Positions 11,086-53,341 of a stretch of 64,000 nt of DNA are shown here, in pieces. The position numbers were made by a program, and so were the translations under genes. How positions within the stretch are numbered: position 1 is the stretch's first letter; each line of letters starts with the position of its first letter. The stretch lies in assembly GCA_963715645.1 (NCBI GenBank), contig OY970259.1, forward strand, positions 1,208,545-1,272,544, written 5' to 3'. The notes below the pieces were generated by a model. It did not search any database and was not told where the DNA came from. It saw nothing but the letters and a program-made list of their open reading frames with translations. Origin of the DNA: an uncultured Thermoplasmata archaeon (GTDB lineage Archaea; Thermoplasmatota; Thermoplasmata; Lutacidiplasmatales; UBA184).

Positions 11086-11122
11086 GAAGGTCCATGCTGG
11101 GAGGCGAGTCCCGCGCGACCGA

Positions 11123-11945: not shown

Positions 11946-11989
11946 ATGGACGGAACCACGAAACTTACTTATACCTGTCGGGGGAACTG

Positions 11990-12084
11990 GCTTTGAATCT
12001 TAACCCCGCCGAACAGCCGCCCCGAATCGAAACTCAGGCGCGTGAATCAAAACCGGGGTGTCCCAGGAGGTTACGATTCAAAGC
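11990..12084. repeat. 95-nt element bounded by 16-nt terminal inverted repeats (15/16 match); MITE-like or recombination-site-like
   Basis: The 5' arm GCTTTGAATCTTAACC (11990-12005) pairs with the 3' arm GGTTACGATTCAAAGC (12069-12084). Three TGAATC-type motifs lie inside. The element sits between mntA and the integrase gene. Confidence 0.7.
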
Positions 12085-12276
12085 ACCGACCGAGGCGCCC
12101 CGGCCGGTGAGACAACGTCGAACCGGGCCGTTCGGACCTAGGGACCCTTCCATGTCCGGGGCCCCGAGCACGGGAGAGCTGGGCGACGATTGCCCGCGAC
12201 ATAGCCTCCCGCCCCCCCACCGTTCACCGTCCGTCGACCGGCGAACGGACTTCGCTGTGGCCGCCCGACACGGGCC

Positions 12277-13311
12277 GTGGTCCGGCGTGACGACGTCGTC
12301 GGGCGCTGGTACGCGGCCAAGCGGGAGCGGGGATGCCTTCCGGATACCATTCGACGGTACCGATGGGTCGTCCGGAGAGCCACCACCTTCCTCCGTCGTG
12401 CTGGGCGGACTCCGGATCCAAGGAAGTGGAGCGTTGAGGACGGCCGGTGGCTCCGCCGTCGCCTCCATGACGACGTCTGGCAGCTCTCCGTCCTCGCCGA
12501 CCTCGCTCGGTTTGCGCGGAACTCGGTGTTCAACGAGGTGGGACTCCCGCGCCGCGGTCCTCCGCTGCGGGTCCGGTGGCTGGCCGAGGGGGCGGTCCGG
12601 GGGCTGGTGGAGGTCACCCGAAGCGATCGCCTCCTTCGACTCGTGGTCCTTCTCGGTCTCGGCCAGGGACTTCGCCGCATCGAGTGGCTTCGGATGCAGG
12701 TCGGTGACATCGATCTCGGGGGCAATCGTCTTCTGGTCCGTGGAAAGGGCCGCGGCCAGCCTAAGCGAGTGTGGATGGCTATGCACCCCGCGCTTCCCCC
12801 TGCCTTCCGGGATTACCTCTGGTGGCGGAACCGGCAGGTCCAGAGATTCCTCCGCCGTTCCCCGTTGACCCCCGTGCCCGACGAGCTCTTCCTCCATCGA
12901 CGTGGCGGCCGCCTGGTCCCGTACGGCGAGGGGGGGGCGAACCGCTGGATGGTCATCCTTCAGCGGCGGCTGGCGGCGAAGGATATCCACGTGAAGCTGT
13001 CGACGCACATGCTGCGTCGCTCGGGGGCTACCCTGATGGAACGGACGCTCCTCGGCTCCCCGGGGGCTTCCCGGGACGGGGTCTACCGTGCCGTCCAAGG
13101 GTTCCTGCGTCACGAGAGCATCGCGACCACGATGCGCTATCTGGAGGCTGATCCATCGCGCCAAGCAGCGGTGATGCAGGCCTTCGCCAACGCCCTCCCG
13201 TGGGACGGGGATGCGGACCCTCCTTCCGGTGACGCCGCTCCGGGTCGACCTTACCTCTCCCGATCCTCTCGTCCGGCCCACCCGAGAATCCGAGCCGAGC
13301 TAGCGGGGTGA
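12277..13311 (+). CDS. Tyrosine recombinase / phage-type integrase
   Basis: LLLGLGQGLRRIEWLRMQVGDIDL (box I Arg), HMLRRSGAT and LRHESIATTMRYL (His-x-x-Arg ... Tyr) place the catalytic residues in the expected order. The ORF is intact. Confidence 0.85.
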   Translation: MVRRDDVVGRWYAAKRERGCLPDTIRRYRWVVRRATTFLRRAGRTPDPRKWSVEDGRWLRRRLHDDVWQLSVLADLARFARNSVFNEVGLPRRGPPLRVRWLAEGAVRGLVEVTRSDRLLRLVVLLGLGQGLRRIEWLRMQVGDIDLGGNRLLVRGKGRGQPKRVWMAMHPALPPAFRDYLWWRNRQVQRFLRRSPLTPVPDELFLHRRGGRLVPYGEGGANRWMVILQRRLAAKDIHVKLSTHMLRRSGATLMERTLLGSPGASRDGVYRAVQGFLRHESIATTMRYLEADPSRQAAVMQAFANALPWDGDADPPSGDAAPGRPYLSRSSRPAHPRIRAELAG

Positions 13312-14619: not shown

Positions 14620-14622
14620 TCC

Positions 14623-15009
14623 ATGAAGTGCCTGGACTCCACGTTCTGCATCGACTTCGCGAACGGAGTGCCGGAGGCCCTGGCCAAAGCCAGCGAGGTC
14701 TCGACCGTCGGCGAGAGACTCGCGATCCCCGCCCCGGCTCTTACCGAGTTCCTCGTTGGGGCCTTCTCCCAGGGAGGGCGACGGCTCGCTCAGGCCCTCG
14801 AGTTTATCGCGGAGCTCGAAGTCTTGGACGTCACCGAACCTATCTCGGTGGATGCCGCTAGGCTGGGAGGGGAGTGCTCACGTCGCGGTGAGTCGGTGGG
14901 GACCCTGGACCTTCTGATTGCCTCCACGGCCAAGCACCATCACGCAACGCTCCTGAGCCGGGACAAGGATTTCGCAAGGATTCCGGGTCTCACGCTCGAA
15001 ACGTATTGA
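14623..15009 (+). CDS. vapC: PIN-domain toxin VapC
   Basis: MKCLDSTFCIDF...LDLLIASTAKHHHATLLSRDKDF has the PIN N-terminal Asp and C-terminal D-x-D/F motif. The ORF is intact at 128 aa. Confidence 0.8.
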   Translation: MKCLDSTFCIDFANGVPEALAKASEVSTVGERLAIPAPALTEFLVGAFSQGGRRLAQALEFIAELEVLDVTEPISVDAARLGGECSRRGESVGTLDLLIASTAKHHHATLLSRDKDFARIPGLTLETY

Positions 15010-31510: not shown

Positions 31511-33924
31511 TTGTGGCCACTCTCGAGTACCCGGCTGGACCTCGACGTGAACTTCGCGAGCGAGGAGTTTCGGGGGCGCCTGACCGTTTTCGGTCTCGGG
31601 AGCCGGTCGGAGGTGGAGCTCGACTGCGAGGACCTAATGGTCGAGGAGGTCCGTCAGGGAGCGACGGTGATCCCCTTCCACTTCGACCGCTCCCGGAGGA
31701 AGTTGGTCATTCCCAAGTCACCCACGGGGAGCGGCCCCATCCGAATCTCCTACTCGGGCCGGGCCTCGAGGGACCTCCAGACCGGCTTCTTCGTTTCCCG
31801 GCTCGGGGAGGGCAAGGCGCTCACCACCATGATGGAACCCGAAGGTTGCCGCCGATTCCTTCCGTGCTTCGACCGGCCGAGCGAGAAGGCCGTCTTCCGG
31901 CTGCGGGTCGTTACCGACCAGTCGCTCGTCGCAATCTCCAACTCGGAGAGCGAGAGCCGCCTCCTTCCCGACGGGCGCCGGGAATGGACGTTCGCGCAGA
32001 CCCCTCCGATGTCGACGTATCTCCTTTACCTAGGGATAGGTGCGTTCACCGAGACCGAGTCCAGCGAGAGCGGAACCCGGATCGTGGTCGCGTCCACTCC
32101 CGAGGACGCCCCCAACGCCGCGAGAGCCCTCCAACTTCCCGGAGCGGCCGTCCGGTGGTACCGGGGAGTTCTACGAGGTCCCCTACCCGTTGCGCAAATT
32201 GCACTTCGTCGCCCTGACCGACTTCTGGGCGGGGATGGAGAACTGGGGAGCGATCGCCGGCGATGATTCCTACTTCGCGTTCGGCGAGACCGCCAGCCCG
32301 AGCGGCGTGCGCATGGCCGTTGAGACGATCGCCCACGAGGTCGCCCACCAGTGGTTCGGGGATCTGGTGACGCTCTATGACTGGAACGACCTCTGGCTCA
32401 ACGAATCGTTCGCGACGTTAGTCGTTCCGAAGATCACGGAACGTGCGCACCTCCGAGAGGACCCGTGGGGTGAGTTCATGATCCGTATCGCTGGGGCGGG
32501 TTCGCCGACTCTCTGCGCGCCACCCATCCCGTGGCGCCCGACTCGCTCGACCCGCGGGAGATCATGGCCCGGGCCGACGAAATCACCTACTTCAAGGGAG
32601 GGCAGCTCCTTCGGATGATCGAAGGGTATCTCGGGGCCGAGGTATTCCGGGCCGGGGTCTCGGCATACCTCCGACGGCATGCCTACGGCAACGCCCGCAG
32701 CGAGGACCTCTGGACGGCGCTCGAGGAGTCCTCGGGACGCAAGGTGACCTCGGTGATGCGAGCGTGGGTCGACCGACCCGGCCACCCCCGCGTGGTCGTC
32801 GAGGGCACCTCCGGGACACTTCGGCTTTCCCAGGAGCGATTCTCCTTCCTGCCCCGGGAGACCGAGGAGCCCCCGTGGCCAATCCCGCTGACCTTCGAGC
32901 TGGCGGGGGCGCGCCGGTCGATGCTCTTCGATACCCGCGAGGTCGAGATGCAGGTCTCCAACCCCTCCTCGTTCCGGCTCAATCCCGGGCGGACGGGATT
33001 CTACCGCGCCCTGTACCCGGAGGAGCATCGGGCGCTCCTGATCGAGCGGATCCTCGAGACGAGCCCCCTCAATCGCTGGGGGCTGTTGAACGATGCCGAG
33101 GCCTTCCTCCTCTCCGGGGACTACTCGTTGGACGAGTATCTCCGGGTGATCCTGTCGGTCCGCTCGGCGACCGATTACTTGACGGTCGCCGAAGCGTGTC
33201 TGGGCCTGGACCAGCTCCTTCCCTTCCTTCGGGACCACTCCGGATTTCGTGGGGCGTCGCAGCAATTCTATCGGGCCCAACTGGAACGGTTGGGTTGGAC
33301 GGCGAGGGCGGCCGAACCCGACACCAACGGCCTTCTCCGGGAGTCCCTCGGATTGGGACTCTCCCGGCTCGACGACGAGGTGGCCCGTGACCTCTCCGGC
33401 CGGTTTCGGCGGGGATCGATTCGGAAGATCCCGCCCTCCGACCGGCGATCGCCTGGTCCCATGCGCGCTGGGGGGGTACCGGGGCCCTCGACCGGCTCTT
33501 GACCCGGGCCAAGGCGGCCGACACCGACCAGTCGTTCCACGCCGCGCGCGCGCTGGGAGGCCTGCCCGACCCGGCCCTCCTCGCCCAGGCTCTCGAGCGA
33601 ATCTTCGCCCCCGGAATGCGCCTCGGCAACAGCCTGTACCTTCTCCAGGGCATCGCTCGGAACCCCGAGGGCCGGGGTGTGACCTGGGAATGGCTCACCC
33701 GGAACCTTCGGGAGTTCGAGCGAAGGGCCAAGGGAAGCCCCCTTCTGTCGCTCGCCCTCCAATTCACGATCCCCGAGGTGGGGGCCGGCCGCCCGACCGA
33801 GGTCAGGGAGTACTTCGGACGGGAGGAGTTCCCGGGAGCCGCGGTCGGTATCGCGAACGGCCTCGAGCTCATGGAAGTGATGGCCCGTGTGCGGGCTCGG
33901 ATCCCCTCGTTGGGTGCGAACTAG
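31511..33924 (+). CDS. M1-family zinc aminopeptidase (tricorn-interacting-factor F2/F3-like); frame switches near 32160, 32490 and 33430
   Basis: GAMENWGAI-type [21 protein letters not shown] and WLNESFA give the HEXXH-x18-E motif. [14 protein letters not shown] follows. The ERAP1-like C-terminal domain continues through 32531..33502 and 33499..33924. The start codon (TTG 31511) is tentative. Confidence 0.8.
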
Positions 33925-38291: not shown

Positions 38292-38837
38292 ATGAGCGGA
38301 GCAATCGAAGCAGGGGTCCATGAGCACGCGCTCCTGGGCCTCGAGGAAGAGGCGCCCAAGCCGAACGGAATGTCAATCGTGGTCTTCTCCGGTGACCTGG
38401 ACAAGGTACTGGCGGCGTTCATCATTGCCAACGGGGCCGCCGCGATGGACCTGCCCGTGACGATGTTCTTCACGTTCTGGGGACTCAACGTGCTGCGCCG
38501 CGAAGAGCCCGTCGCGCTCAAGGGCTCGAAGACAAACATCGAGAAGATGTTCGGCCGGATGATGCCGCGGGGACCCGGGAGCCTCAAGCTCTCGCGGATG
38601 AACATGGCCGGTCTCGGGACAAGGATGATCAAGAAGGAGATGTCCAAGAAGCACGTCCTGGACCTACCGCACCTCGTCAAGAGCGCGCAAGACCAAGGGG
38701 TGCGCCTCGTGGCGTGCACGATGTCGATGGACCTGATGGGCATCAAGAAGGAGGAACTCCTTCCTGGGATCGACTACGGCGGTGTCGGCAGCTACGTCGA
38801 CGCAGCGGACCGGAGCCGCATCTCCTTGTTCATCTAG
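38292..38837 (+). CDS. DsrE/DsrF-like sulfur-relay family protein (DsrE2/3-type)
   Basis: MSIVVFSGDLDKVLAAFIIANGAAAM...MFFTFWGL...VRLVACTMSMDLMGI is the conserved pattern of the DsrE-related family, with the active-site Cys in ACTMS. Confidence 0.75.
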   Translation: MSGAIEAGVHEHALLGLEEEAPKPNGMSIVVFSGDLDKVLAAFIIANGAAAMDLPVTMFFTFWGLNVLRREEPVALKGSKTNIEKMFGRMMPRGPGSLKLSRMNMAGLGTRMIKKEMSKKHVLDLPHLVKSAQDQGVRLVACTMSMDLMGIKKEELLPGIDYGGVGSYVDAADRSRISLFI

Positions 38838-39056
38838 GGCCGGTCGAGCGTCGGGTCCGGGAGTCCGGGAGGAACCGTTCGTCCCTCCCCCTCCCGACCT
38901 TCCCGGACCCGGGATGGGAGGGCGCGAAGCGAGCCGACCTGACCCACTCCTTCGTGGGGCTGCGTAGGGTCGCCAGGGGCGAAATCCCTCGAGAGTGAGC
39001 CCGGGTTGACTTGAGCCTTTTAACTTCGATTCCACCTACGAAGCTCGAGGGAGACG

Positions 39057-39312
39057 ATGAATCCGGAGGAGCTCAAGCATTTGAAAGTTGACCGAGTCGT
39101 CGACGCCCGCGGAGTTGCGTGCCCCGGCCCCCTGCTCGAGGCCAAGCGCGAGGTGACGGCGGTCCCGATGCACGGTGTGATGGAGGTCATCTCCTCCGAT
39201 GAGGGAACGACCGAGGACGTGCCGTTGTGGGCGAAGAAGGTGGGCCATGAGTACCCTAGGGACGCTTCCCGACGCAGGGCTCTGGCACGTCTACCTGCGG
39301 CGGAGCAAGTAG
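39057..39312 (+). CDS. tusA: TusA/SirA-like sulfur carrier (restored by removing one C from the CCC at 39255-39257)
   Basis: DARGVACPGPLLEAKR is the CPxP persulfide-carrier motif. In the shifted frame the C-terminus reads ...LGTLPDAGLWHVYLRRSK, typical of TusA. It ends at TAG 39310-39312, which overlaps a GTG. Confidence 0.75.
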
Positions 39313-39737
39313 TGTCCGAAGCGGCTGCCGCACGCCACCCGAAGGTGTTGGTGTTCTCCACCAACGCGATCTCCGACATGGGGATCGACCTCGCCGGCAG
39401 CTCCCACATGGACTACTCCGCGGCGGTCCGCGTGATCGCCGTGCCGTGCTCCGGCGGGATCAACCCGGCGTGGATCCTCCACGCCGTACAGGCGGGGTTC
39501 GATGGCGTCTTCGTCGCGGCCGACGGAGCCGAGTGCGCGTTTCTCCCGGACTGTGTGGCCCGGACCGGCCGCATCGTGGCAGATGCCCAGACCCTCCTGC
39601 GGAACAACGGGGTGGACCCGGCGCGGGTCAAGACCGCGGCGATCTGCTCGGTGTGCTCCGAGCCCTTCGTGAACCACATGAAGCAGTTCGGCAAGGCCCT
39701 CGGGGAGATCCCCGCGGTCGCCGGAGCACCTGCATGA
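39312..39737 (+). CDS. MvhD/FlpD-like domain protein with atypical cysteine pattern
   Basis: KVLVFSTNAISDMGIDLAGSS...VRVIAVPCSGGINPAWILHAVQAGFDGVFVAA parallels MvhD (FCCNWC.YAGADLAG...VPCSGrv...GADGV). The N-terminal Cys cluster is replaced. Its stop overlaps the hdrA ATG (ATGA). Confidence 0.65.
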   Translation: MSEAAAARHPKVLVFSTNAISDMGIDLAGSSHMDYSAAVRVIAVPCSGGINPAWILHAVQAGFDGVFVAADGAECAFLPDCVARTGRIVADAQTLLRNNGVDPARVKTAAICSVCSEPFVNHMKQFGKALGEIPAVAGAPA

Positions 39738-41569
39738 CGGTGACATCGCCCCCCTCCCAGTACGACGTGCTCGTCCTCGGCGCGGGGGTGGGAGGGATGG
39801 AGTCCGCCCTCACGCTGGGCGACATGGGATTCCGGGTCCTGCTGGTGGAGAAGGAGAGCAGCGTGGGTGGCCGGATGATCCTGCTCAGCAAGGTCTTCCC
39901 GACGCTGGACTGCGCGAGTTGCATTTCCACTCCTAAGATGGCGGCCGTGAACAACCATCCCAACGTCCGACCCCTCGTCTACTCGCAGGTCGACGATATC
40001 ACTCCCCGCCCGGAGGGTGGGTTCCTCGTCCACCTGACCCGGAAACCTACGTTCGTCGATTTCGCCAAATGCACCGGGTGTGCGCTCTGCGAGGCCGCCT
40101 GCACGGTCGCTGTCCCGGACGAGTTCAATTACGACCTCGCGGCCCGACGGGCCGCCCACATCGCCTTCCCCCAGGCGGTGCCGAAGAAGGCGGTCATCAC
40201 GCGACGGGGGACCTCACCCTGCTCCTTCACGTGCCCCGCGGGAGTGAAGCCCCACGGGTACGTCTCCCTCGTGCGCGCCGGAAAGTACGAGGAAGCCTTC
40301 CGTCAGCACTTGGAGGACGCTCCGCTTGTGGGCGTACTCAGCCGGGCCTGCTATGCCCCGTGCGAGGGCGAGTGTACCCGAGGGGAGCTCGAGGGCCCCG
40401 TGGCCATCCGCGGGATCAAGCGGTTCATGGCCGACCGGTACTATGCGGCTCACCCCATCCCCGAATACGGCCCGCCGAAGAAGGGTCGCGACCCGAAGGT
40501 CGCGATCGTCGGCTCCGGACCGAGCGGCCTCTCCGCAGCGTTCTTCCTCGGCCGCTCTGGCTACGAGGTAACGATCTTCGAGGCCGAGAGCGAACCCGGC
40601 GGGATCTTGCGCTGGGGGATCCCGGCCTATCGACTTCCCAAGGATGTCCTCGCGCGCGACCTCGCGAACATCACGGCCCTCGGGGTCCGCATCCAGACCA
40701 ACCAGCGCGTCACCTCGGTGGCGGCACTCCGCGAGCAGGGGTTCGATGCCGTGTTCGTGGCGTCCGGAGACCGAGGCGGTCGTAAGCTGGCAGTCCCGGG
40801 CGAGGACCTCGACGGGGTCTACGACGCGGTCCAGTACCTTCACGACCTGAACGCGGGCCGCCCGCCCGACCTTTCGGGCAAGACGGTAGTGGTGATCGGA
40901 GGCGGGAACGTCGCCATCGATTCCGCCCGCAGCGCGCTGCGTCTCCAGGCCCGCTCCGTCAAGATGTTCTGCTTAGAAGCACCGGGGGAGATGCCGGCCC
41001 ACCCCTGGGAGATCCAGGAGGCGACCGACGAGGGGGTCCTGCTCACCAACTCCTGGGGGGTCGGCAAAGTCCTTGGGCACGACCGGCAGGTCATGGGCAT
41101 CGAGCTCGTCCGGTGCACCTCGGTGTTCGACCAGGAGCACCGATTCCGTCCGACCTTCGACCCATCGGTTCGCGAGACCGTACCCGCCGACGTGATCATC
41201 ACGGCGATCGGTCTGGCTCCCAACACGGGGGCCTTTGCCTCCGAGGTCGAGCTCCAGCGGAACGGTACGTTCAACGTGAACCCTGAGACCCTCGCCACCT
41301 CGGTTCCGTACGTCTTCGCTGGCGGGGACGCCGTTACGGGCCCCTCGATGATCGTGACCGCGATCGGGCAGGGGAAGCGAGCCGCCTTCTACATCGACCG
41401 TCTTCTTCAGGGCCTTCCGCTCGAGGGGGTCAAGTTTGACGAGCGGTTGCCGAGCGCCGACCGCATGGCGGTGGCGACGGAAGCCCGCAAGGACACGGCC
41501 CCGCGCACGCCGATCCCGGTCGTTCGAACTCCCATCCCCCAGTCGGGTCACCTCGTTCGAGGAGTATGA
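39734..41569 (+). CDS. hdrA: HdrA-like flavoprotein, N-terminal part, carrying a nested GltD/NfnB-like NAD(P)H:FAD module
   Basis: VLVLGAGVGGMESAL...GGRM...FPTLDCASCI...CTGCALCEAAC...FPQAVP are HdrA motifs. Then CPAGV...YAPCEGECTRG...VAIVGSGPSGLSAAF...GGILRWGIPAYRLP...VVVIGGGNVAIDSA...VFAGGDAV is GltD/NfnB-like. Confidence 0.8.
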   Translation: MTVTSPPSQYDVLVLGAGVGGMESALTLGDMGFRVLLVEKESSVGGRMILLSKVFPTLDCASCISTPKMAAVNNHPNVRPLVYSQVDDITPRPEGGFLVHLTRKPTFVDFAKCTGCALCEAACTVAVPDEFNYDLAARRAAHIAFPQAVPKKAVITRRGTSPCSFTCPAGVKPHGYVSLVRAGKYEEAFRQHLEDAPLVGVLSRACYAPCEGECTRGELEGPVAIRGIKRFMADRYYAAHPIPEYGPPKKGRDPKVAIVGSGPSGLSAAFFLGRSGYEVTIFEAESEPGGILRWGIPAYRLPKDVLARDLANITALGVRIQTNQRVTSVAALREQGFDAVFVASGDRGGRKLAVPGEDLDGVYDAVQYLHDLNAGRPPDLSGKTVVVIGGGNVAIDSARSALRLQARSVKMFCLEAPGEMPAHPWEIQEATDEGVLLTNSWGVGKVLGHDRQVMGIELVRCTSVFDQEHRFRPTFDPSVRETVPADVIITAIGLAPNTGAFASEVELQRNGTFNVNPETLATSVPYVFAGGDAVTGPSMIVTAIGQGKRAAFYIDRLLQGLPLEGVKFDERLPSADRMAVATEARKDTAPRTPIPVVRTPIPQSGHLVRGV

Positions 41570-41576
41570 GACGGTC

Positions 41577-42467
41577 ATGAACGAAGCCCAGGCGAGGGAG
41601 AGCGCCAACCGCTGCCTGGACTGCGGCGTGTGCTCGGAGTGCCGGGAGTGCATCGCCGCCTGCCCGGCGGACGCGATCGACCTCACCATGCGGGCCCACG
41701 CAGAAACCGTCACCGTCCGGTCGGTCGCCCTCGCCACGGGGTTCTCTCCCTTCGACGCGCGCCAGAAGCCGGCGTTCGGGTTCGGGCGCTTCCCCAACGT
41801 CATCACCGGCCCGCAGATGGACCGCATCCTCGCCCCCACCCGGCCGTTCAACGCGGTGGTCCGCCCCTCCGATGGCAAGATGCCTTCCAACGTCGCGTTC
41901 GTCCTGTGCACCGGTTCGCGAGACGAACAGGTCGGCAACCGTCTCTGCTCGCGGGTGTGCTGCATGTACTCGATGAAGCAGGCCCAGCTGCTCATGGGGT
42001 CGCTCCCGCTCGCGGACGTGACGGTCTACTACATCGACATCCGGGCGTTCGGTAAGGGGTACGAGGAGTTCTTCCAGCAGACGAAGGGGATGAGCGTCGC
42101 GTTCACCAAGGGCAAGGTCTCCCGCATCGAGGAGACGGACGACAGCGACCTCCTCGTGCACTACGAGGACATCGAGGGCGGAGGCGGCCACAAGGTCGCA
42201 CGTCACGACCTGGTCGTGCTCGCGGTCGGTATGCTCCCCAACCAGACCCCGCTGGGGATGTTCCCCCAGGGAGGTCCGGCCAAGGATGCCTACTCCTACG
42301 TCCAGGAGACGAACGAGGAGTTGGAGCCCGGCACGACAAGCCTCGATGGGGTGTTCGTCATCGGCTCCGCCACCGCGGTCCGCGATATCCCCGATACGAT
42401 CGTGCATTCGGAAGCGGCATCCGCGCAGATCGCCGCCTACCTCAAGCGCGCGGAGGCGAAGGCATGA
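41577..42467 (+). CDS. hdrA: HdrA-like flavoprotein, C-terminal part (either a separate ORF from ATG 41577 or fused to 39734..41569 by a frame switch near 41520-41560)
   Basis: RCLDCGVCSECRECIAACP...ATGFSPFD...NVITGPQMDR...VAFVLCTGSRDEQVGNRLCSRVCCMYSMKQA...YYIDIRAFGKGYEEF are colinear with the second half of methanogen HdrA. Confidence 0.75.
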   Translation: MNEAQARESANRCLDCGVCSECRECIAACPADAIDLTMRAHAETVTVRSVALATGFSPFDARQKPAFGFGRFPNVITGPQMDRILAPTRPFNAVVRPSDGKMPSNVAFVLCTGSRDEQVGNRLCSRVCCMYSMKQAQLLMGSLPLADVTVYYIDIRAFGKGYEEFFQQTKGMSVAFTKGKVSRIEETDDSDLLVHYEDIEGGGGHKVARHDLVVLAVGMLPNQTPLGMFPQGGPAKDAYSYVQETNEELEPGTTSLDGVFVIGSATAVRDIPDTIVHSEAASAQIAAYLKRAEAKA

Positions 42468-44201
42468 CGGCGCGCAAGATCGGGGTCGTCGTCGTGCCAG
42501 TGCGGGGGCAACATCTCGGACTACGTCGACACCGAAAAGGTGCGGCAAGAGGCCAGCAAGGAGGCCGACGTCGTGACCTGCCCAGGTTCAGATGTTCGCT
42601 TGCTCCGACGCCGCCCAGCAGGCCGTGATCCAGGAGATCCGCGAGAAGAAGCTCGACGGCATTGTCGTCTGCTCCTGTTCCCCGAAGCTCCACACCGCGA
42701 CCTTCCGCGCCATGGCCGAGCGGGCCGGCCTCAACCCGTACGAGTACAGCCAGGTCAATATCCGCGAACAGTGCTCCTGGGCCCACACCCACGACCGGCC
42801 GGGGGCCACCGAGAAGGCGCTCGACCTCGTCCGGGCCGGCGTGGCCAAGACCGCGCTCTCCCAGCCGCTCGAGAGAATGCGGGTCGAGACCCTTCCCCAG
42901 GCCCTCGTGCTCGGCGCCGGGGTCGCCGGACTGCGGGCCGCCGTCGCCCTGTCGGACCTCGGGATCTCTGTCCACCTCGTGGAGAAAGCGGCCGCCCCGG
43001 GGGGACAGGTCGTCCGGTGGGGCGGCCTCTTCCCGAACGACAAGGTGGGCGGGGAGCTCGTCCAGAGCCTCCTCGCGGACGTGGGTCGACGGGAGAACAT
43101 CGTGACTGTACTTCAACAGCGAGCTGGTCGAGAAGGCGGGGCGGATCGGCGAATTCGCCGTCAAGGTCCGCACCGGAACCGGGGACCTCATCTCCCTCCA
43201 GGTCGGAGCGATCGTCGTCGCCACCGGATTCGAGCCCTACACGCCGAAGAACGGGGAGTTCGGCTTCGGCCTCGAGGGTGTGGTGACGCTTCCCGGAGTT
43301 CAAGGAACTCCTCGCCACCCGACCGAACCGCCTCGTCTATCGAGGGCGGCGAGATCCGGACGATCGCCTACATCTACTGCGTCGGCTCCCGCGAGGCGTC
43401 GAAGGAAGGTGCCGGGCACTCGTACTGCTCGCGGTACTGCTGCAGCGCTACCTCCCACATCGCGACGGTCGTCGAGCCGCGCTGGACCCGACCATCCACC
43501 AGTTCCACCTCTTCCGGGACGTGCGGACCTACGGGAAGTACGAGGCGCTCTACGAGCACGCGCTGCGCTCGGGCTCCCTCTTCCTCCGGTACGGCGAGGA
43601 CGGACCCCCCCGTGGTCGCGCGAGGGGACGGAGGGCTCCGGTCCTGAAGGTCCACGACCGCCTGATGCGCGGGCGAGGAGGTCGAGATCCGGCCCGACCT
43701 CGTCGTGCTGGTCACGGGGATGGTGCCCCGGGAGAACGCCCGCGCTCACGGACGTCCTCAAGCTCCCGGTCGGCCAGGACGGGTTCTTCCACGAGATCCA
43801 CGTCAAGCTGCGGCCCGTCGAGACGGTCATCGATGGGGTGTTCATTGTCGGAGCGGCCCAGGGACCGAAGAACGTCGCGGAGAGCGTCGCGAAGCGCTCT
43901 GGCCGCGGTCTCGAAGACCGGTGCGCTGCTGCTCAAGGGGTACGTCGACCTCGACCCGCTGGTCGCCAAGGTCGACCCGAACCTCTGCGTCTGGTGCGAC
44001 GCGTGCCTGAAGGCCTGCCCGTACGGGGCGATCGATTCGGTATCCTACGGCGAGAAGCAGGTCGCGGAGGTCAACCCGATCCTGTGCAAGGGCGAGGGCG
44101 GGTGCGTGCCGGTTTGCCCGAAGCAGGCGGTCGCCGTTCAGGGGTACACCAACGAACAGATCACGTCCATGATCGACGCGATGGCGAGGGGGGCGGCATG
44201 A
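42464..44201 (+). pseudogene. Second HdrA-type gene (N-terminal Cys domain, FAD domain, C-terminal 2x[4Fe-4S] ferredoxin domain) broken by about 11 frame switches
   Basis: MTARKIGVVV / CQCGGNISDYVDTEKV / MFACSDAAQQ...IVVCSCSPKLHTATF...NIREQCSWAH...LVLGAGVAGL / LYFNSELVEK...VVATGFEPY / IYCVGSRE...YCSRYCC / RDVRTYGKYE / LVVLVTGMVP / FFHEIHVKLRPVETVIDGVFIVGAAQGP / CVWCDACLKACP...CKGEGGCVPVCP. Each piece lies in a different frame. Confidence 0.75.
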
Positions 44202-44449
44202 CGGGTAAGACCCAGCTCCGGAGCCTCAGCGAGGTCTTCCGGGATGGGATGCTCGAGGCGGACCGCGTAGCCGCCGTGCTGCGTCAGGGCCCCAGGACCC
44301 TCCCCGAGATCGCCGGAGCGCTCGGGGCACCGGTCCCCGAGGTGACGAAGTGGGTCATGGCGATGCGGCGTTACGGGCGGGTCCACGAACTTTCCAAGGC
44401 GCGGTCGGACGACTACTACCAGTACCAGCTTGCGGAGGAAGACCGATGA
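44198..44449 (+). CDS. Small (83 aa) winged-helix-like protein embedded in the hdr cluster
   Basis: ATG overlaps the hdrA2 stop, and its own stop overlaps the hdrC ATG (ATGA). LPEIAGALGAPVPEVTKWVMAMRRYGRVHEL looks like an HTH plus wing. No Cys residues. Confidence 0.5.
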   Translation: MTGKTQLRSLSEVFRDGMLEADRVAAVLRQGPRTLPEIAGALGAPVPEVTKWVMAMRRYGRVHELSKARSDDYYQYQLAEEDR

Positions 44450-44754
44450 AGGTCGACACGGAATTCCTGAACGGACTGGACCTGAGCGGCGACTTCGACG
44501 CGCGAAGGTGCATCAACTGCGGCACCTGCTCGGCGCTCTGCCCGCTCGGGGTCGAGCTCCTGCCCCGCCGGCTATTCCGTTACGTCCTCTTGGGAAATGC
44601 GGAGGCGGTCCGCGCCCAGCGAGACACGATCTTCAGCTGCCTCCTCTGCCGGATGTGCGAGGCGAACTGCCCTGGTGGGGTCCACATCGCCGAGAACGTC
44701 CGGGCGCTGCGGACCATCGTCAACCGCGATGTCCACCACCTCGCGGAGGCCTAG
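44446..44754 (+). CDS. hdrC: HdrC-like 2x[4Fe-4S] ferredoxin subunit
   Basis: CINCGTCSALCP and CLLCRMCEANCP are two CxxCxxCxxxCP motifs with HdrC-like spacing. Confidence 0.8.
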   Translation: MKVDTEFLNGLDLSGDFDARRCINCGTCSALCPLGVELLPRRLFRYVLLGNAEAVRAQRDTIFSCLLCRMCEANCPGGVHIAENVRALRTIVNRDVHHLAEA

Positions 44755-44762
44755 GAGGGATC

Positions 44763-45733
44763 GTGCCCGTTCCGGTGGCCAGCACCCTCGGGATGCTGGG
44801 GGACAACCTCCGCAAGCGACGGAGCGCGCTTCCGATCGGCCGTCGGAAGCTGACCGCCTGGACCCGGGGCCTCGACATTCCCAGCGAGGGAGCGACGATG
44901 CTCTTCACGGGCCAGATGTGGCAGATGGTGCCGGCGATCAACGCCATGAGCCGGCAGCTCGCGAAGTACGAGAGATCCGGGAGCGCCCGACTCTTCGGCC
45001 TCGCGCGGTCCGTGAACAAGGTCGTCAACCTCACCCCGCTGCTCGCCCGCACCTCCGCCAAGGAGCGCCGAGCGTACGACGAACGACTACGCAACATCGC
45101 CCGACTCCTGAAGGCTGCCGGCGTGCCGTTCAGCTACCAGGTTAAGGCCGACCTCTACGCCGGAGCCCTCGCGTACGATGAGGGACTCGACCGTACGTTC
45201 GTGGCCCACGCCCAGTACGTGTATGGCGTGCTCCGGGAGCACGGGGTCCAGCGAGTGATCACCGTGGACCCCCACACGACCAACATGCTGCGCAGCGTCT
45301 ACCCGAAGGTCGTCCCCGGATACGAGCTCGAGGTCCGAAGCTATCTCGAGGTCCTGGCCGAGCGGAGCCTCACCCCGCTCCAGCGGGTCGGGGGGTCCGC
45401 CACGATCCACGACTCGTGCGTCTACGCGCGGTACGAGGGGGTCGTCGACCAGCCGCGAACCCTGCTCGCCGGCGCCGGGGTCCGGATCGCCGAGCCCGAG
45501 CTCTCCGGGAAGATGACGTTCTGCTGCGGGGGGCCTCTCGAGACGCTGTTCCCGGGAAAGTCCGCAGAGATCGCGACGGCGGCGTATCGAGCAGCTCCAG
45601 GCGGTGGATCGTCGGGTCGTGACCGCCTGTCCGCTCTGCCTCTCGAACCTGAGCCGCGTGGCCCCGCCCGAAACAAAAGTCCGGGACATCTCGGATTACC
45701 TGGTCGAGGCCTACTGTCCGGGCAGAAGCCTGA
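44763..45733 (+). CDS. hdrB: HdrB-like CCG-domain subunit (frame switch near 45590; 3' end not determinable)
   Basis: TVDPHTTNML, IHDSCVYARY and MTFCCGGP form the first CCG domain. After the switch, VVTACPLCLSNL forms the second. GTG start at 44763. No clear stop appears after DISDYLVEAY. Confidence 0.7.
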
Positions 45734-45946: not shown

Positions 45947-46535
45947 CTAGAGGCCGGCGGCGAGGAGCGCGTTCATCGCCTGCTCGATCGTGTGCTCGGG
46001 AGTACCTTTCGCGTCGATGCGAACCCAGCGCGGCTGTTGGAACATCTGCTCGAACTTCGTCCGGACCCGCTGGAGATACATGTCATCCTCGACCGCATCC
46101 GCCTCCCCGCTGGCCTGCATCCGTCGGATGGCCAGGTCCACCGGAGCGTCGAGGTAGAGCACCAGGTCCGGCTCGACCGACAGGGCTCGCTCAATCCGCT
46201 CGAGCTCCCGCATTTGTTCGGTCGCCAGACCCGGCGACTGGTAGGCGAGCGTCGAATAGAACGAGCGGTCCTGCACGACGACGTCGCCCTGGTCGAGCGC
46301 GGCCTCGATGTCCGGCCGAAGGAGCGCGCGGTCGACCGTGAAGCAAAGTGCCGCCGCGAAGGGCTCGCTCTGGATCATGCGGGCGTACCTCGCGACGCAG
46401 GAACTTGTCGGTGGGCGAACGGAAGCTCGAGACCGAATGCCCGCGCCGGAGCAGGGGCGGCACCAGTCGGGCGGCCAGCTCCGTCTTGCCGGTCCCGTCA
46501 ATCCCCTCGATGACGATGTACGTTCCTCGTTCGCT
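45947..46535 (-). CDS. tmk: Thymidylate kinase (frame switch near 46390)
   Basis: YIVIEGIDGTGKT (P-loop) lies in the 46191..46610 frame. It continues as FTVDRALL...VVQDRSFYSTLAYQ...LVLYLDAP in 45947..46501. Confidence 0.8.
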
Positions 46536-46713
46536 CACGGGTCGTTCTCTTGCGGTCGCCCGTCGTCCACCGGCCCTGTCTCCGGGGTCGTCGGGGTCCG
46601 GCCTCACCAAGCCCTCCGGGGCAATAAACCCGCCCCGGGCCGCTCCGTGGACCCGCCCCGAGACCGGGGGCCCCGCCGGCCGGTGAGTCCCGGCCCCGCC
46701 CTCACCCTCCCGG

Positions 46714-49097: not shown

Positions 49098-49322
49098 GAG
49101 AGAGCTCTCCTCGAATCGCAGAGCGAGCGCTCCCGGATTTGGGCGCGGGCCCTGCGGGTACGAATGGCCCGCCCCTCGCTGCATGTTCATGACGGGGCCG
49201 AGCGTTCCCGGGGTCAGCGCTCGGGGGAAAAGCGTCTGGGAACGCCGACGCCCGCACGCCCTTAAATAGCGTACAGTGCTCAAATGATGCACCCGTTGCC
49301 CCGACGGGTCCTCAGGAACTCC

Positions 49323-51117
49323 ATGACCACCCCCGCCGCCAAAGCCAGCCCCCTTCCGGAGGAATCCGGGCCCGGGGCGGCCCGCCCCGTGGCTCCTCTC
49401 ACCGACGTCAGCGTCATGATCGGGGGGCAAGGCGGCGACGGTACCCTCACCGTCTCCGACCTCCTCGGCCGATACTTCCGGAAGCGGGGCCTCTATGTGT
49501 ACACGTCACGCAATGTGCTGTCCCGGATCCGCGGGGGCCATGCCGACGCTTCGGTGCGCGCGAGCCGGGACCCGACCGCGGCCGTGAAGTCGACGGTCGA
49601 CGTGCTGGTCGCCTTCGACCAAGAGGCGGTGACGATCGGCCACTCCGAGCTAGCCCCCCACGGGTACATCCTCTACGACTCGACCGCGTTCAAGTCGGAC
49701 CTGCCCAACGCGTCGGGGTTTCCGTTCGCGACCCTGGTCGGCGGGGTGCTCGGCCAACCGATCTTCAAGAACACGGCGGCCTACGGCGCGCTCGAGCGTC
49801 GTGTTCGGCTTTGACCCGGCCGAGACGCGAGCCGTCATTGAGGAGCGGTTCAAGCGACGGGGGGGCGAAGCCCTCGAGAAGAACCTCAAAGCCCTCGAGA
49901 TCGGTCGGAAGGCCGCGCTCGAGGTCCCGGGCCTGGCGGACCGGTACAGCGTCGCCGACGGGGATGCCCACGACCTCGTCATGACGACCGGCAACCAGGC
50001 CGTCGCCCTCGGGTTCGTCGTAGGCGGGGGACGGTTCTTCGCCGGCTACCCGATCACGCCGGCGACCGAGATCATGGAGTACCTTCAGCGGTACTTCCCC
50101 CCCTCCACGGGGTCGTGCGCCAGGCCGAGGACGAGCTGGCCGCGGTGAACATGATCATCGGGGCGGCTTACACCGGTGCGCGGGTCATGACCTCGACCAG
50201 CGGGCCCGGCCTCTCGCTGATGACCGAAGGGATCGGACACGCCGGCACGGCGGAGCTTCCGATCGTGGTCGCGGACTGCTCGCGGGTCGGGCCGTCGACC
50301 GGCCAACCTACGCGGCACGAGCAGTCCGACCTCTCGCACCTCGCGAACCTTGGCCACGGGGAGTACCCTCGATTCATCCTCGCCCCCGGGACCCCGGTCG
50401 ACTGCTTCGAGATGACCGTCGAGGCCCTGAACCTCGCCGAACGATGGCGGCTCCCGGTCATTCTCCTCCTCGATCAGGCTCTCTCGCAAAACACGACCAG
50501 CAGTCCCCGGTTCGACATCTCCCGGGTCCACGTGGCTCGGGGCGAGCGACTGACGGGCGACTCCGCCGCCCAGCTCGCCCAGTACAAGGCGTACCGCTTC
50601 ACGGAGACCGGCCAGAGCCCGTATGCTCCTCCCGGGACCCCGGGCGTCTGGGCTGAGATCACGGGCAATGAGCACGACGAATGGGGCCACGTCTCGGTCA
50701 ACCCGGTGAATCGCGTCCGCATGATGAAGAAGCGACTCGAAAAGATGGTCAAGGCGCGCGACGAGCTCCCCGGGGGCTCGATTTTTCGGCCCGGCCGACG
50801 CGAAGGTCGGCATCATCGGCTTCGGCAGTACGATCGGGCCGATCCTCGAAGCGCAGCGGTTGCTTATGGCCCGCGGCAAGGCGACCCGTTTCCTCCAGGC
50901 CCGGACGTTGTACCCCGTCCCCACCCAGGAGATCGACCCGTTCCTGAAGTCCGTGGACGTCGCGTACGTCGTGGAGCACAACTACACCGGCCAGTTCCAC
51001 CGCCTGCTCCGCGAGACGATGCCCTGGCACTACCAGAAGCTCCGCTCCATCCTGAAGTACGACGGCTCAACCTTCCGTGCCCCGCAGATCATCGCCGAGA
51101 TTCCCGAGGTCGCCTAG
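49323..51117 (+). CDS. korA: 2-oxoacid:ferredoxin oxidoreductase alpha subunit with fused N-terminal gamma domain (frame switches near 49795, 50100 and 50780)
   Basis: The gamma-like part reads VMIGGQGGDGTL. The alpha part reads TTGNQAVALGFVVGG...AGYPITPATEIMEY / RQAEDELAAVNMIIGAAYTGARVMTSTSGPGLSLM / IIGFGSTIGPILEAQ...ARTLYPVP. At 50097-50103, 7 C are present where 8 C would restore ...YFPPLHGVVRQAEDE. Confidence 0.8.
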
Positions 51118-51118
51118 G

Positions 51119-51985
51119 ATGGTCGAGTCCGCGAAGCCGGTTCCGCCGATCTGGTGCCCGGGCTGCGGTGACTTCGGGGTCCTCGCCGCCCTCAAGAAGG
51201 CCGCGCTCGAGATCAAGCTCGCACCGCACGACCTCGTGCTGGTCGGCGGGATCGGGTGCTCTGGCTCCATCCACAACTTCCTCGAGGTCAACGGGATCCA
51301 CGCGCTCCATGGCCGACTCCTGGCCCAGGCCGTCGGCGTGAAGCTTGCGAACCCGGCGCTCACGGTCGTGGCCGCCGGCGGGGACGGGGACGGCTACGCC
51401 ATCGGGATGGGTCACTTCATCCACGCGTTCAAGAAGAACACCTCGATCATCTACATCGCCATGAACAACGAGACCTACGGCCTCACGAAGGGGCAGCCGT
51501 CGCCCACGAGCCAGATCGGGTTCGAAGGGAATATCGAGCGGCCGTTCGACGCGATCCTCACTGCGCTCTCCATCCCGGCGCCGAACCTCATCGCACGGAC
51601 CTTCTCCGGGGACCCGAAGACGATGATCGCCGTGATCGGGGAGGCGCTCCGGTTCACGCGCGAGGGGCGCGGGTTCGCGTTCATCGAGGACCTCTCCCCT
51701 TGCGTCACCTACAACGATACCTACAAGCTGTGGCGGGAGAAGGTGCTGGACGTCTCGAAGGTCGAAGGGTACGACCCGACCGACCGAAAGGCGATGTTCC
51801 GGATCTGCCTCGAGACGATGGACGCCGGACGGATCCCAATCGGCGTCATGCACCGACCGAAGGAAGTTTCCCGCGAGGGTCTCGAGACGAAGCTCCTCGG
51901 GGAATCCACCGGGCCCGCGCGCACCGACATCGAGATCGCGCCCAACCTTCCGGCGTACGAGAAGCTCCTCGCCACCCTCGCCTGA
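51119..51985 (+). CDS. korB: 2-oxoacid:ferredoxin oxidoreductase beta subunit (TPP-binding)
   Basis: WCPGCGDFGVL, GIGCSG and GGDGDGYAIGMGHF...YIAMNNETYGLTKGQ are canonical beta-subunit motifs. The ORF is intact. Confidence 0.85.
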   Translation: MVESAKPVPPIWCPGCGDFGVLAALKKAALEIKLAPHDLVLVGGIGCSGSIHNFLEVNGIHALHGRLLAQAVGVKLANPALTVVAAGGDGDGYAIGMGHFIHAFKKNTSIIYIAMNNETYGLTKGQPSPTSQIGFEGNIERPFDAILTALSIPAPNLIARTFSGDPKTMIAVIGEALRFTREGRGFAFIEDLSPCVTYNDTYKLWREKVLDVSKVEGYDPTDRKAMFRICLETMDAGRIPIGVMHRPKEVSREGLETKLLGESTGPARTDIEIAPNLPAYEKLLATLA

Positions 51986-52022
51986 CGCTGGGGGACGGCG
52001 GGGGCGTTCGTTCCCGCACGGC

Positions 52023-53341
52023 ATGACGCTTTGGGTCGGGATCGACGACACGGACTCTCCCCGGGGAGGCTGCACGACGTTCGTGCTGACCGAGCTGCTT
52101 GCGCTTGCGGCGGAGCACGACCTCGACCTCGTCGGCGAGCCTCGTCTGGTCCGACTGAACCCGAACATCCCTTGGAAGACGCGGGGGAACGCGGCGCTCT
52201 CCGCTCGCTTCGGCCGCGGAGCGGGGCGTCCCCGCCTCGTCGGGGAGGTCGGGGAGCGTCAGCTCCGTAGCTTTCCCCGCGGCAGGGCTCCCTCTCCCCA
52301 CGCGGTCGAACGGTTCCTCGACGCAGCCTGGAGCGTGGTCCGTGCCTCCGCTCAGACCGGGGAGAAGGGGACCGACCCGGCGATGGTCGCCACCGAGCGG
52401 CCTTTCCCGGCACGCTGGTACCATCGGGCGGTGCAGGAGGTCGTCGCGGTCGACCAGGTTCGTCAGGAGCTGGCGGCCGCCGGGGTGTGGATGAGGACCG
52501 AGGGGAGCGACCAGGGCCTGGTCGGCGCGGCCGCCTCGATCGCGTGGCCCGGCCGACCGGGGCACGTGGGAGCTGATCTCCTACCGCGATCCGGAGCGGT
52601 ACGGGCGACCGCGCGAGGTGGACTCGCGGTCGGTACGCGCCGCCCAGGCCGCGGACCCTCGACTCTTCCTCTGCTTCGACCGCAGGACCCGGCGCCTCCT
52701 GGTGGCCCCGCACACTCCCTGCCCGATCCTCTTCGGGCTCCGTGGAACTACCCGAGATGCGCCGCTGCGCGCCCGCGAACGGGTCCGGTCAGAACCCGTG
52801 GAACGGTGGGTGCTGTTTCGGACGAATCAGGGGACCGGGGATCACTTGATCCGACGCGAGGCGGACCGCTGGCCCGACTACTGCTCGGGTTGGATTGGGG
52901 GGGAGGTCCGCGCGCCCGGGGTGGCCTTGCGCGGCGGTCACGTGCGCTTCTCAATCGTTCCCTCGCGGGGCCCCCCGGTGGTGTGTCTCGCCTTCGAACC
53001 TACGAAGACCCTCCCCCAGGTAGCCCAGGACCTCCGCGCCGGGGACCGGGTGCGAGTCTGGGGAAGCCGGGGAACGAGGCCTGAGGTCCGGTTGGAGGGG
53101 ATCGAGCTGCTCCGATGGGCGCCCACCCAATCGGGTACGCGTCCGCCCCATTGCATGTCATGTCGCCGGAGCAGCCGGTCCCTGGGCCGGCAGCGGGGAT
53201 TTCAGTGCCCGGAGTGTCACCGACGGTGGCCCCCGGAGGCGGCCACCCATCCCCCTCGCGCTCCCCCTCGGAACCTCGGGACGTCACCACCCCACGCCTT
53301 CGGCGCGGCGCCACCTGGCCCCGCTGGGCCCCGAACCGTAG
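52023..53341 (+). CDS. tiaS: tRNA(Ile2) 2-agmatinylcytidine synthetase TiaS (frame switches near 52565 and 53290)
   Basis: MTLWVGIDDTDSPRGGCTTF is the signature TiaS N-terminus. It continues with WELISYRDPERYG...CPILFGLRG...FRTNQGTGDH. A Zn ribbon (CMSCRRS...CPECH) follows, then the tail TPSARRHLAPLGPEP ending at TAG 53339-53341. Confidence 0.8.

Follow-up and report, generated by a model that had tools for sequence, protein, structure and literature searches.

A conserved gene module that links an HdrA pair and a predicted NAD(H) module to the sulfur carriers TusA and DsrE in Thermoplasmata and Bacteria

Complexes of the heterodisulfide reductase (Hdr) type play a central part in how anaerobes conserve energy and in one of the main routes of sulfur oxidation, and to our knowledge few combinations of their subunits have been studied so far. 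Here we analyzed a 64,000-nucleotide stretch (hereafter the window) of a 2.18-Mb contig (OY970259.1) from an uncultured Thermoplasmata archaeon and counted, at positions 38292-45733 of its forward strand, eight genes in which the sulfur carriers DsrE and TusA are joined to an MvhD-like protein (MvhD'), two HdrA-type flavoproteins (HdrL and HdrA2), a small winged-helix protein (wHTH), an HdrC-like ferredoxin and an HdrB-like protein. The seven genes from TusA to HdrB are translationally coupled, and with DsrE they form one module that is found in both Archaea and Bacteria. From the predicted subunits, we tentatively read the cluster as an NADH-linked redox complex of the Hdr/Qmo type that is dedicated to the sulfur carried by TusA and DsrE and works in the reductive direction, and it is probably an unrecognized microbial route of cellular sulfur processing.

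Several described systems come close to this cluster. The sHdr systems of sulfur oxidizers are recognized by the syntenic sets shdrC1B1AHC2B2 (type I) or shdrC1B1AHB3 with etfAB (type II), accompanied by the lipoate-binding protein LbpA (PMC11094781, PMC6067878), and TusA and DsrE3-type proteins are established carriers of persulfide or thiosulfonate that feed Hdr-like enzymes (PMC11094781, PMC4175335). An HdrABC/HdrL/MvhD complex was proposed from proteomics of Syntrophobacter fumaroxidans, where Sfum_0819-0824, abundant with sulfate, combines hdrABC, a gene for an iron-sulfur (Fe-S) protein, mvhD and hdrL in one cluster (PMC5947623). The HdrA with a nested GltD module is a known architecture, not a new one, and has been named 'HdrL' (PMC2702500), 'HdrA-NfnB' in ANME-1 (PMC9012536) and 'type III HdrA' (PMC12054007). 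In Qmo systems, an alternation between QmoAB-HdrCB and QmoABC is known (PMC10504309, PMC3333476).

Gene content and subunit architecture

A first-pass annotation of this DNA, made from the letters and open reading frames, had counted nine genes where eight are found. Its domain calls (DsrE, TusA, MvhD, HdrA-GltD, HdrC and HdrB) were all confirmed by Pfam (Table 1), and the start/stop overlaps that it listed, TAGTG at 39310 and ATGA at 39734, 44198 and 44446, are all seen in the sequence, together with a fifth, ATGA at 42464, between HdrL and HdrA2. Because DsrE is followed by a gap, the tightly coupled unit extends from TusA to HdrB; DsrE is co-conserved with the cluster and is possibly transcribed separately. 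An AT-rich TTTTAA at 39018-39023, spotted by eye upstream of TusA, is a possible archaeal TATA-like box. DsrE itself has an alternative start near 38370 and scored 88 bits against the NCBIfam DsrE2 model (cutoff 210). All NCBIfam scores of the eight proteins stayed under the model cutoffs, as did those for regulator equivalogs, and tRNA and Rfam scans of the window gave no matches.

Table 1. Features of the cluster, with coordinates in the window
Feature	Coordinates	Strand	Evidence
DsrE-family sulfur carrier	38292-38837	+	Pfam DrsE_2, E=3e-59; Cys in VACTMSM
DsrE-TusA intergenic gap, 219 bp	38838-39056		Sequence reading
TusA sulfur carrier	39057-39312	+	Pfam TusA, E=5e-15; Cys in CPGP
MvhD/FlpD-like protein with remodeled cysteines (MvhD')	39312-39737	+	Pfam FlpD, E=8e-26
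HdrL, 911-aa HdrA with nested GltD/NfnB module	39734-42467	+	Pfam Fer4_20 and Pyr_redox_2
HdrA2, second HdrA	42464-44201	+	5ODC_A match, 3e-112; stitched by frameshift-aware alignment
wHTH, 83-aa minimal winged-helix protein	44198-44449	+	No family match; AF2 model
HdrC-like ferredoxin, two CxxCxxCxxxCP motifs	44446-44754	+	Pfam Fer4_17/Fer4_8
HdrB-like CCG protein	44763-45733	+	Pfam CCG, C-terminal half only

The two HdrA-type proteins have lost complementary domains. HdrL residues 12-157 and 628-905 align to residues 146-290 and 288-567 of the methanogen HdrA 5ODC_A, and the insert of ~470 residues between them (~160-640) aligns to NfnB, NfnA and GltD chains. This insert is a GltD/NfnB-type module of two [4Fe-4S] clusters, FAD and NAD(H) that splits the inserted ferredoxin domain, and all Fe-S cysteines of HdrL are invariant. 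HdrL consists otherwise of the FAD and inserted ferredoxin domains only, without the N-terminal (1-145) and C-terminal ferredoxin (568-654) parts of the 5ODC_A type. HdrA2 aligns to residues 4-235 and 317-649 of 5ODC_A, that is, to its N-terminal, FAD and C-terminal ferredoxin domains, and has no inserted ferredoxin domain (5ODC_A ~236-316). From these complementary losses, we infer that HdrL and HdrA2 would be obligate partners in an asymmetric heterodimer, in which the electron paths form one single, asymmetric set. Both match the methanogen HdrA (5ODC_A) better than the sHdrA structure 6TJR (HdrA2, 3e-112 vs 9e-31; HdrL, 7e-95 vs 1e-37), and in NCBIfam, HdrA2 and MvhD' score best against Methanosarcina HdrA2. 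The homologues of HdrL, more than 100 of them full-length (~910 aa), carry no annotation beyond 'FAD-dependent oxidoreductase' or 'HdrA-like'.

A short motif bears on the nucleotide that HdrL would use. Residues Y310-R311-R312 of Thermotoga NfnB, the YRR that binds the phosphate of NADPH, align to C-L-E in HdrL. Replacement of a YRR-type motif accompanies the use of NAD(H) in DsrL (PMC7596348), and NADH has been argued likewise for type III HdrA (PMC12054007); by these precedents, the C-L-E of HdrL speaks against a site for the 2'-phosphate and would predict NADH rather than NADPH.

Compared with MvhD (5ODC_D), MvhD' carries FSTNAI in place of FCCNWC and has lost the GGC cysteine, so that it retains only the cysteines of CSG and (D/E)C, two of the six MvhD positions. 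Three new, invariant cysteines lie in LPDC and in C-S-V-C (a CxxC motif), and all five cysteines of MvhD' are invariant in 27 orthologues. The HdrC-like protein matched the NCBIfam models of HdrC and of the QmoC N-terminus, all below the cutoffs. In the HdrB-like protein, the invariant cysteines C218, C253, C254, C288 and C291 correspond to the C-terminal five-cysteine CCG set only, and in the N-terminal half the cysteines are replaced by invariant residues other than Cys, with the motifs YTGxMxQ, LYxGAL and ITVDPHTT; it is thus predicted to hold one non-cubane cluster, not two. Its AF2 model (pLDDT 82) matches the folds of Mycobacterium smegmatis EtfD (9ojn), LutA and HdrB (5odc_B), while a search of the PDB by sequence only returned M. 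smegmatis EtfD (9ojn) and did not recover HdrB.

The wHTH protein has no cysteine and belongs to no Pfam or NCBIfam family. Its homologues, of which the search listed close relatives only, comprise 3,899 clusters, all of ~80 aa, labeled 'hypothetical' or 'MarR family'. The compact folds nearest to its AF2 model (pLDDT 84) are Z-alpha domains (rmsd ~1 Å), ArsR/SmtB cores match as well, and a profile search of the PDB returned generic winged-helix matches only. We considered a DsrD-like activator, but a profile comparison with a DsrD sequence showed no similarity, leaving a loose analogy only. Since its gene lies between hdrA2 and hdrC with overlapping codons, wHTH is probably a subunit or accessory factor and not a classical regulator.

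Conservation, variants and relation to described systems

To examine the conservation of the cluster, one genome per GTDB species was scanned. This gave at least 569 candidate loci, the best 80 of which were inspected (L numbers below are our handles for loci and contigs), and the components were counted in the 56 of these 80 that had enough flanking DNA. The 56 complete loci belong to Thermoplasmata and to over 15 phyla of Bacteria, and the hosts of the inspected loci include Dehalococcoidia, Acidobacteriota, Gemmatimonadota, Ignavibacteriales, Planctomycetales, Chloroflexota, Bacillota (Desulfofundulus, Desulfallas), Actinomycetota, Alphaproteobacteria, Myxococcota, Kiritimatiellales and Caldisericota. 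TusA, MvhD', HdrL, HdrA2, wHTH and DsrE are nearly always there and in constant order: TusA and MvhD' were found in all 56 loci, with MvhD' directly after TusA every time, HdrA2 and wHTH in 55 each, and a DsrE-family gene on the same strand in 54-55. The first-pass annotation had named three findings that would overturn its view of the locus, namely an accidental adjacency, DsrE and TusA genes that belong to an unrelated operon, and a complex that is already characterized. In terms of conservation, none of them was borne out: the same gene order recurs in all 56 complete loci across two domains of life, far more than chance would give, both carrier genes stay with the cluster, and no description of this gene combination was found in the openly accessible full-text literature. 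The conserved order and the retained carriers therefore indicate that the adjacency is not accidental and that DsrE and TusA belong to the module. An intact copy is present in a cultured strain, Desulfofundulus thermobenzoicus (L073).

The end of the module occurs in two forms. HdrC and HdrB are present in 37 of the 56 loci and a QmoC homologue in 18, and the two never occur together. The QmoC homologue is a single gene with an Fe-S domain and a multi-helix membrane domain; it aligns to positions 5-358 of the 360 of the QmoC model and scored 189 bits (family cutoff 300). This variant is found in bacterial loci (e.g. L024, L025, L028, L029, L031, L036, L044, L047, L050, L053 and L066) and, judged by its domains, would be a membrane- or quinone-linked version of the module.

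A second variation concerns the gap between DsrE and TusA, which has no ArsR gene in the window and holds an ArsR/SmtB regulator at the equivalent position in 28 of the 56 loci. A two-cysteine pattern is present in 21 of 38 copies of this regulator, among them most of the bacterial copies, and is at most suggestive of a sensor of sulfane sulfur. An assignment as a SqrR/BigR-type sulfane sensor could not be established, as NolR and HlyU gave better scores and the BigR hidden Markov model (HMM) gave 47 bits (cutoff 155).

Several features of individual loci and of their flanks were also recorded. In a Thermoplasmata metagenome-assembled genome (MAG), a second, partial set lies downstream of the cluster (L014:16736-20206) and consists of a TusA-like gene, an HdrL gene with 64% identity and a winged-helix gene. 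In Desulfofundulus thermosubterraneus (L079:15668-17600), the cluster is followed by the cysteine synthase CysK (480 bits, above the cutoff) and an EamA-family transporter; this arrangement hints at a link to sulfur assimilation in this one genome. Three families recur in bacterial flanks, a sigma-54 activator with a Cys-rich PAS domain (19 loci, e.g. L066:4066-5565), a cytidylate-kinase-like protein (PF13189; 12 loci, e.g. L045:15169-16281) and DUF2173 (six loci, e.g. L048:2783-3313). In a Myxococcota MAG (L052), the mvhD'-like (2540-2950) and winged-helix (7390-7623) genes contain in-frame stops, which are either errors or candidate selenocysteine codons, as Desulfobacterium is known to have MvhD selenoproteins.

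We compared the module with each of the described systems. It resembles sHdr loci in that genes for Hdr-type Fe-S flavoproteins are linked to tusA and a dsrE of the DrsE_2 type, in the order hdrA, small gene, hdrC, hdrB, which is similar to shdrA-H-C2-B2 (a resemblance of gene order alone), and in the single non-cubane site that the HdrB-like protein shares with sHdrB3 of type II. However, it has neither hdrC1B1 upstream of hdrA nor etfAB, it has two HdrA paralogues of the methanogen type instead of one short sHdrA (~350 aa; 6TJR), and it has, in addition, a subunit of the MvhD type and a predicted, built-in NAD(H) module. Genes for lbpA or lipoate functions were found neither in the Pfam annotation of the window, which is partial, nor among the recurrent families within 5 kb of the 80 loci. 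Thus the sHdr-like right half proposed by the first-pass annotation holds for the gene order but not for the identity of the HdrA, and membership of sHdr was rejected on synteny, on HdrA type and on the absence of lbpA linkage in the annotated window and the recurrent flanks.

HdrABC-MvhAGD and Methanosarcina HdrA2B2C2 (5ODC; PMC5296606) are the systems to which HdrA2, MvhD' and the HdrA portions of HdrL are most similar in sequence, the HdrC-like protein carries the two [4Fe-4S] motifs of methanogen HdrC, and the HdrB-like fold matches HdrB. In contrast to these complexes, the functions of HdrA are divided over two proteins, HdrB has one cluster site rather than two, and MvhD' has lost most of the MvhD cysteines. 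As the first-pass annotation had noted, the window shows no gene for a lipoate-binding protein, a hydrogenase or a formate dehydrogenase, in a Pfam annotation that is partial and, given the frameshifts, non-exhaustive; an F420-linked module was likewise not seen in the annotated window, and hydrogenase and formate dehydrogenase were also not found in the recurrent flanks. A canonical bifurcating HdrABC-MvhD complex was therefore rejected on the split HdrA, the one CCG site, the remodeled MvhD and the lack of hydrogenase and formate dehydrogenase in the annotated window and the recurrent flanks. The earlier view that the locus is not a canonical sHdr or Mvh/Hdr system is upheld.

Sfum_0819-0824 overlaps with the window cluster in its subunits, compared here by description only; HdrL or type III HdrA also has the GltD/NfnB module within the inserted ferredoxin domain and an adjoining mvhD-like gene, NADH has been proposed for it, and it is, like the window cluster, biochemically uncharacterized. 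In the described HdrL clusters, the accompanying genes are dsrABC, fdh, mvhADG or one for a beta-subunit-like Fe-S protein, and neither tusA/dsrE nor a winged-helix gene is among them; the accessible papers on HdrL report no complementary loss between HdrL and HdrA, no remodeled MvhD cysteines and no single-CCG HdrB. With Qmo systems, the module shares two tandem HdrA-derived flavoproteins followed by QmoC or by soluble HdrC and HdrB, and a sulfur-metabolizing partner. This partner is TusA/DsrE and not AprAB (aprBA-like genes were found neither among the recurrent neighbors nor in the annotated parts of the window), one of the flavoproteins has a predicted NADH module, and MvhD' and the winged-helix gene are separate additions. 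DsrL (PMC7596348) also joins the NAD(P) pool to sulfur redox enzymes by an NfnB/GltD-type flavin module, but it stands alone and works with DsrAB, whereas the module is here nested inside an HdrA. The cluster is set apart by its linkage to tusA/dsrE, by the winged-helix gene, by an HdrA pair with complementary domains, by the rewired MvhD and by an HdrB with a single site, and we found no description of such a module in the openly accessible full-text literature.

Frameshifts, the sister assembly and the surroundings of the cluster

The indels that the first-pass annotation expected are real. We counted the frameshifts against L001, an intact orthologous operon with 70-80% identity, in a frameshift-aware alignment and found about 15 in 7.4 kb: one in TusA, one in HdrL (an extra base at 41541), 11 in HdrA2 and two in HdrB (extra bases at 45578 and 45720); DsrE, MvhD', wHTH and HdrC are free of them. 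A search with the HdrB fragment retrieved an intact HdrB-like protein (P0241, 322 aa, 99% identical) on a second contig, L083, which is colinear with positions 34752-55733 of the window at 98.9% identity (160 mismatches and 63 indels). None of the frameshifts in HdrL, HdrA2 and HdrB of the window has a counterpart in L083; they trace to extra bases of the window (in HdrA2, almost all of them do), and L083 has frameshifts of its own at other sites, two in HdrL and four in HdrA2.

The only frameshift common to both assemblies is the extra base of tusA at ~39255 (region 39250-39262; ~4503 in L083), which lies inside the palindrome CCCTAGGG. Left uncorrected, the frame joins 66 TusA residues through a 20-residue linker to MvhD', giving an open reading frame (ORF) of 226 aa at 39057-39737; the corrected TusA ends in LGTLPDAGLWHVYLRRSK, and its TAG stop overlaps the GTG start of MvhD'. 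The common extra base may stem from systematic miscalling at a modified motif, or TusA and MvhD' may truly be fused in nature. Because all frameshifts but this one are not shared with L083, they are assembly errors and do not indicate decay, and we conclude that the genes are under purifying selection and that the indels are consensus errors of long-read assemblies.

HdrA2 differs from its neighbors in the number of substitutions between the two assemblies. Codon mismatches between the window and L083 number 44 in HdrA2 and 12 in the longer HdrL, and the substitution density of hdrA2 is ~5x that of its neighbors. Of the HdrA2 differences, 31 are at third positions, and 30 are synonymous and 14 non-synonymous. 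The corrected HdrA2 is 77% identical to its L001 orthologue, conserved like its neighbors (DsrE, 74.5%). Strain microdiversity in hdrA2 has probably aggravated the consensus errors. Among the 80 related loci, frameshifts were found in hdrA2 only (L003, L026, L052 and L079) and none in hdrL, hdrB or mvhD', and L079 is the isolate genome of D. thermosubterraneus. The frameshifts concentrate in hdrA2 across technologies, and our guess is that strain microdiversity misleads the consensus there.

The density of frameshifts in the window and the hdrA2 frameshifts of the four other assemblies, including that of an isolate, might be taken as signs of a decaying pseudogene cluster with an inactivated HdrA2 and no present function, but we ruled this out as very improbable on the comparison with L083, which lacks the window frameshifts and has different ones, on the conservation of the corrected HdrA2 and its mostly synonymous strain-level differences, and on similar indels in the neighboring tmk, korA, tiaS and M1 peptidase genes. 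The locus is intact in the population. The split housekeeping genes of the window comprise tmk (thymidylate kinase), korA (2-oxoacid:ferredoxin oxidoreductase alpha/gamma), TiaS, an M1 aminopeptidase and a methyltransferase (e.g. at 45947-46610(-), 49266-51114(+), 52000-53300(+), 32474-33921(+) and ~37860), and the indel rate over the whole window is roughly one per kb. A GC3-based frame HMM for a window-wide count of frameshifts was dropped as too crude.

Two further features of the window were noted. A 2-oxoacid:ferredoxin oxidoreductase (gamma/alpha and beta) at 49266-51982 follows the cluster at a distance of 3.5 kb and could supply reduced ferredoxin locally; L083 carries it too, and in L001 it does not stand beside the cluster. 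Positions 1-13300 look like an integrated element or genomic island: the first ~10 kb have a G+C content of 54-60% against 63-70%, and they are followed by a HepT/MNT toxin-antitoxin pair (11126-11934, minus strand) and a phage-type integrase (12205-13308). Further on, positions 14620-15006 hold a PIN-domain gene.

Functional readings of the module

In the reductive reading that we tentatively favor, electrons of NADH would feed, or come from, the FAD of HdrL through the clusters of the GltD module and the inserted ferredoxin domain. From the HdrA flavins, one path would pass HdrC and end at the one non-cubane cluster of HdrB or, in the variants, run through QmoC to quinone, and the other would reach MvhD' by way of the C-terminal ferredoxin domain of HdrA2. 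DsrE would load TusA, and TusA would present a persulfide or polysulfide or form a carrier heterodisulfide, so that the complex could reduce carrier-bound sulfur at HdrB and/or MvhD' and release sulfide and free carriers. The splitting or merging of electrons at the flavins may couple a second partner, either ferredoxin or quinone/disulfide, and the physiological role would be the turnover of cytoplasmic sulfane sulfur in detoxification, assimilation or sulfur respiration.

Several points weigh against this reading. NADH alone can reduce a persulfide, and the design with two flavoproteins is not explained by simple reduction. About one third of the loci have QmoC and no HdrB and retain both TusA and DsrE; the HdrB cluster is thus not a universal sulfur site, and HdrB alone does not account for the substrate site. 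The inserted ferredoxin domain is absent from HdrA2 and is split in HdrL by the GltD module, so that the classical ferredoxin-reducing branch is unavailable as such. Likely aerobes as well as strict anaerobes are among the hosts, the ArsR regulators show no specific likeness to SqrR/BigR, and the direction of the reaction is not readable from sequence. The same domain losses bear on the earlier proposal of an NAD(P)H-coupled, possibly bifurcating flavin oxidoreductase: its nucleotide module stands, with a motif that favors NADH, whereas classical ferredoxin bifurcation is not assured. For its substrate, a protein-bound persulfide or disulfide delivered by TusA/DsrE is a reasonable conjecture.

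A further reading, which is rather unlikely, is that the rewired MvhD takes sulfur directly from TusA at its CxxC and that flavin splitting couples NADH and carrier sulfur to a third partner, which would be a disulfide at HdrB or else quinone at QmoC. This would make the cluster a third class of Hdr sulfur enzymes, hitherto unrecognized and widespread among the Archaea and Bacteria of soils and sediments. We regard with the same reserve the proposal that such a class would be a lipoate-independent, NAD-linked oxidoreductase of sulfane sulfur or thiosulfonate, built as an asymmetric HdrL/HdrA2 heterodimer.

Another reading, which we consider rather unlikely, is that no sulfur is transformed and that the cluster encodes a redox-balancing, NADH-dependent bifurcating or confurcating complex of the Hdr/Qmo type, with TusA and DsrE as a thiol/disulfide couple (a DsrC-like 'bacterial heterodisulfide') or as maturation helpers. 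Protein disulfides such as that of DsrC have been proposed as substrates of the homologous HdrABC/HdrL, Flx-Hdr and HdrA2B2C2 complexes (PMC5947623, PMC5296606), the interchange of HdrCB and QmoC parallels that of QmoAB-HdrCB and QmoABC (PMC10504309), and the affinity of HdrA2 and MvhD' to Methanosarcina HdrA2 is consistent with such a role. However, TusA and DsrE each have the single conserved cysteine typical of sulfur carriers, they are retained where QmoC replaces HdrB, the disulfide site, and the frequent ArsR-type regulator beside tusA suggests a response to a small molecule.

An oxidative role is unlikely as well. In this case, the module would be a lipoate-independent analogue of sHdr in which the sulfane sulfur of DsrE/TusA is oxidized and the HdrA flavin splits the electrons, some going through the GltD module of HdrL to NAD+ and the others to an acceptor of higher potential, either a disulfide at HdrB or, in the variants, quinone by way of QmoC. 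The pair of TusA and a DsrE3-type protein is a hallmark of sHdr sulfur oxidizers (PMC11094781), the branch with the GltD module corresponds to the outlet of low potential in the HdrA of methanogens (PMC12054007), and the related NfnB-like DsrL reduces NAD+ during sulfur oxidation (PMC7596348). QmoC would offer a quinone outlet in the variant loci, and many of the hosts are likely aerobes or facultative organisms, but the cluster is also present in strict anaerobes (Desulfofundulus, Dehalococcoidia and Caldisericota). The absence of hdrC1B1, lbpA and a subunit of the sHdrA type from the cluster, the annotated window and the recurrent flanks, the single CCG cluster that is left, and the lack of a recurrent sulfite-handling gene in the flanks of the inspected loci also argue against oxidation.

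The reductive cleavage of a carrier-bound thiosulfonate (at the level of thiosulfate), in which bifurcation would split the electrons of NADH between a high-potential acceptor (disulfide or quinone) and the low-potential cleavage of TusA-S-SO3- at or near MvhD', yielding sulfite and a sulfide or persulfide for assimilation, is purely inferential and quite improbable. The potential of thiosulfate cleavage is very low (~ -400 mV), and a bifurcating design would make sense for it. In Metallosphaera, thiosulfonate is carried by DsrE3A and TusA (PMC4175335), MvhD' adjoins TusA and has the new CxxC, and in D. thermosubterraneus the cluster is followed by cysK and the gene of an EamA exporter; the cysK linkage comes from one genome only, however, and no thiosulfate transporter (YeeE/YedE) recurs in the flanks.

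At least several hundred genomes at the species level have the module, in which a predicted NADH module is directly joined to a pair of HdrA proteins and which is tied to sulfur carriers. As an intact cluster is present in the cultured D. thermobenzoicus, its function is directly testable. If the reading of the HdrL/HdrA2 pair is true, the module would provide a natural asymmetric HdrA heterodimer for the study of electron bifurcation. If it handles sulfane sulfur, it would close a gap and could explain how the cytoplasmic sulfur pool is linked to NAD(H), quinone and possibly ferredoxin in many organisms of soils and sediments that are not classical 'sulfur' organisms.

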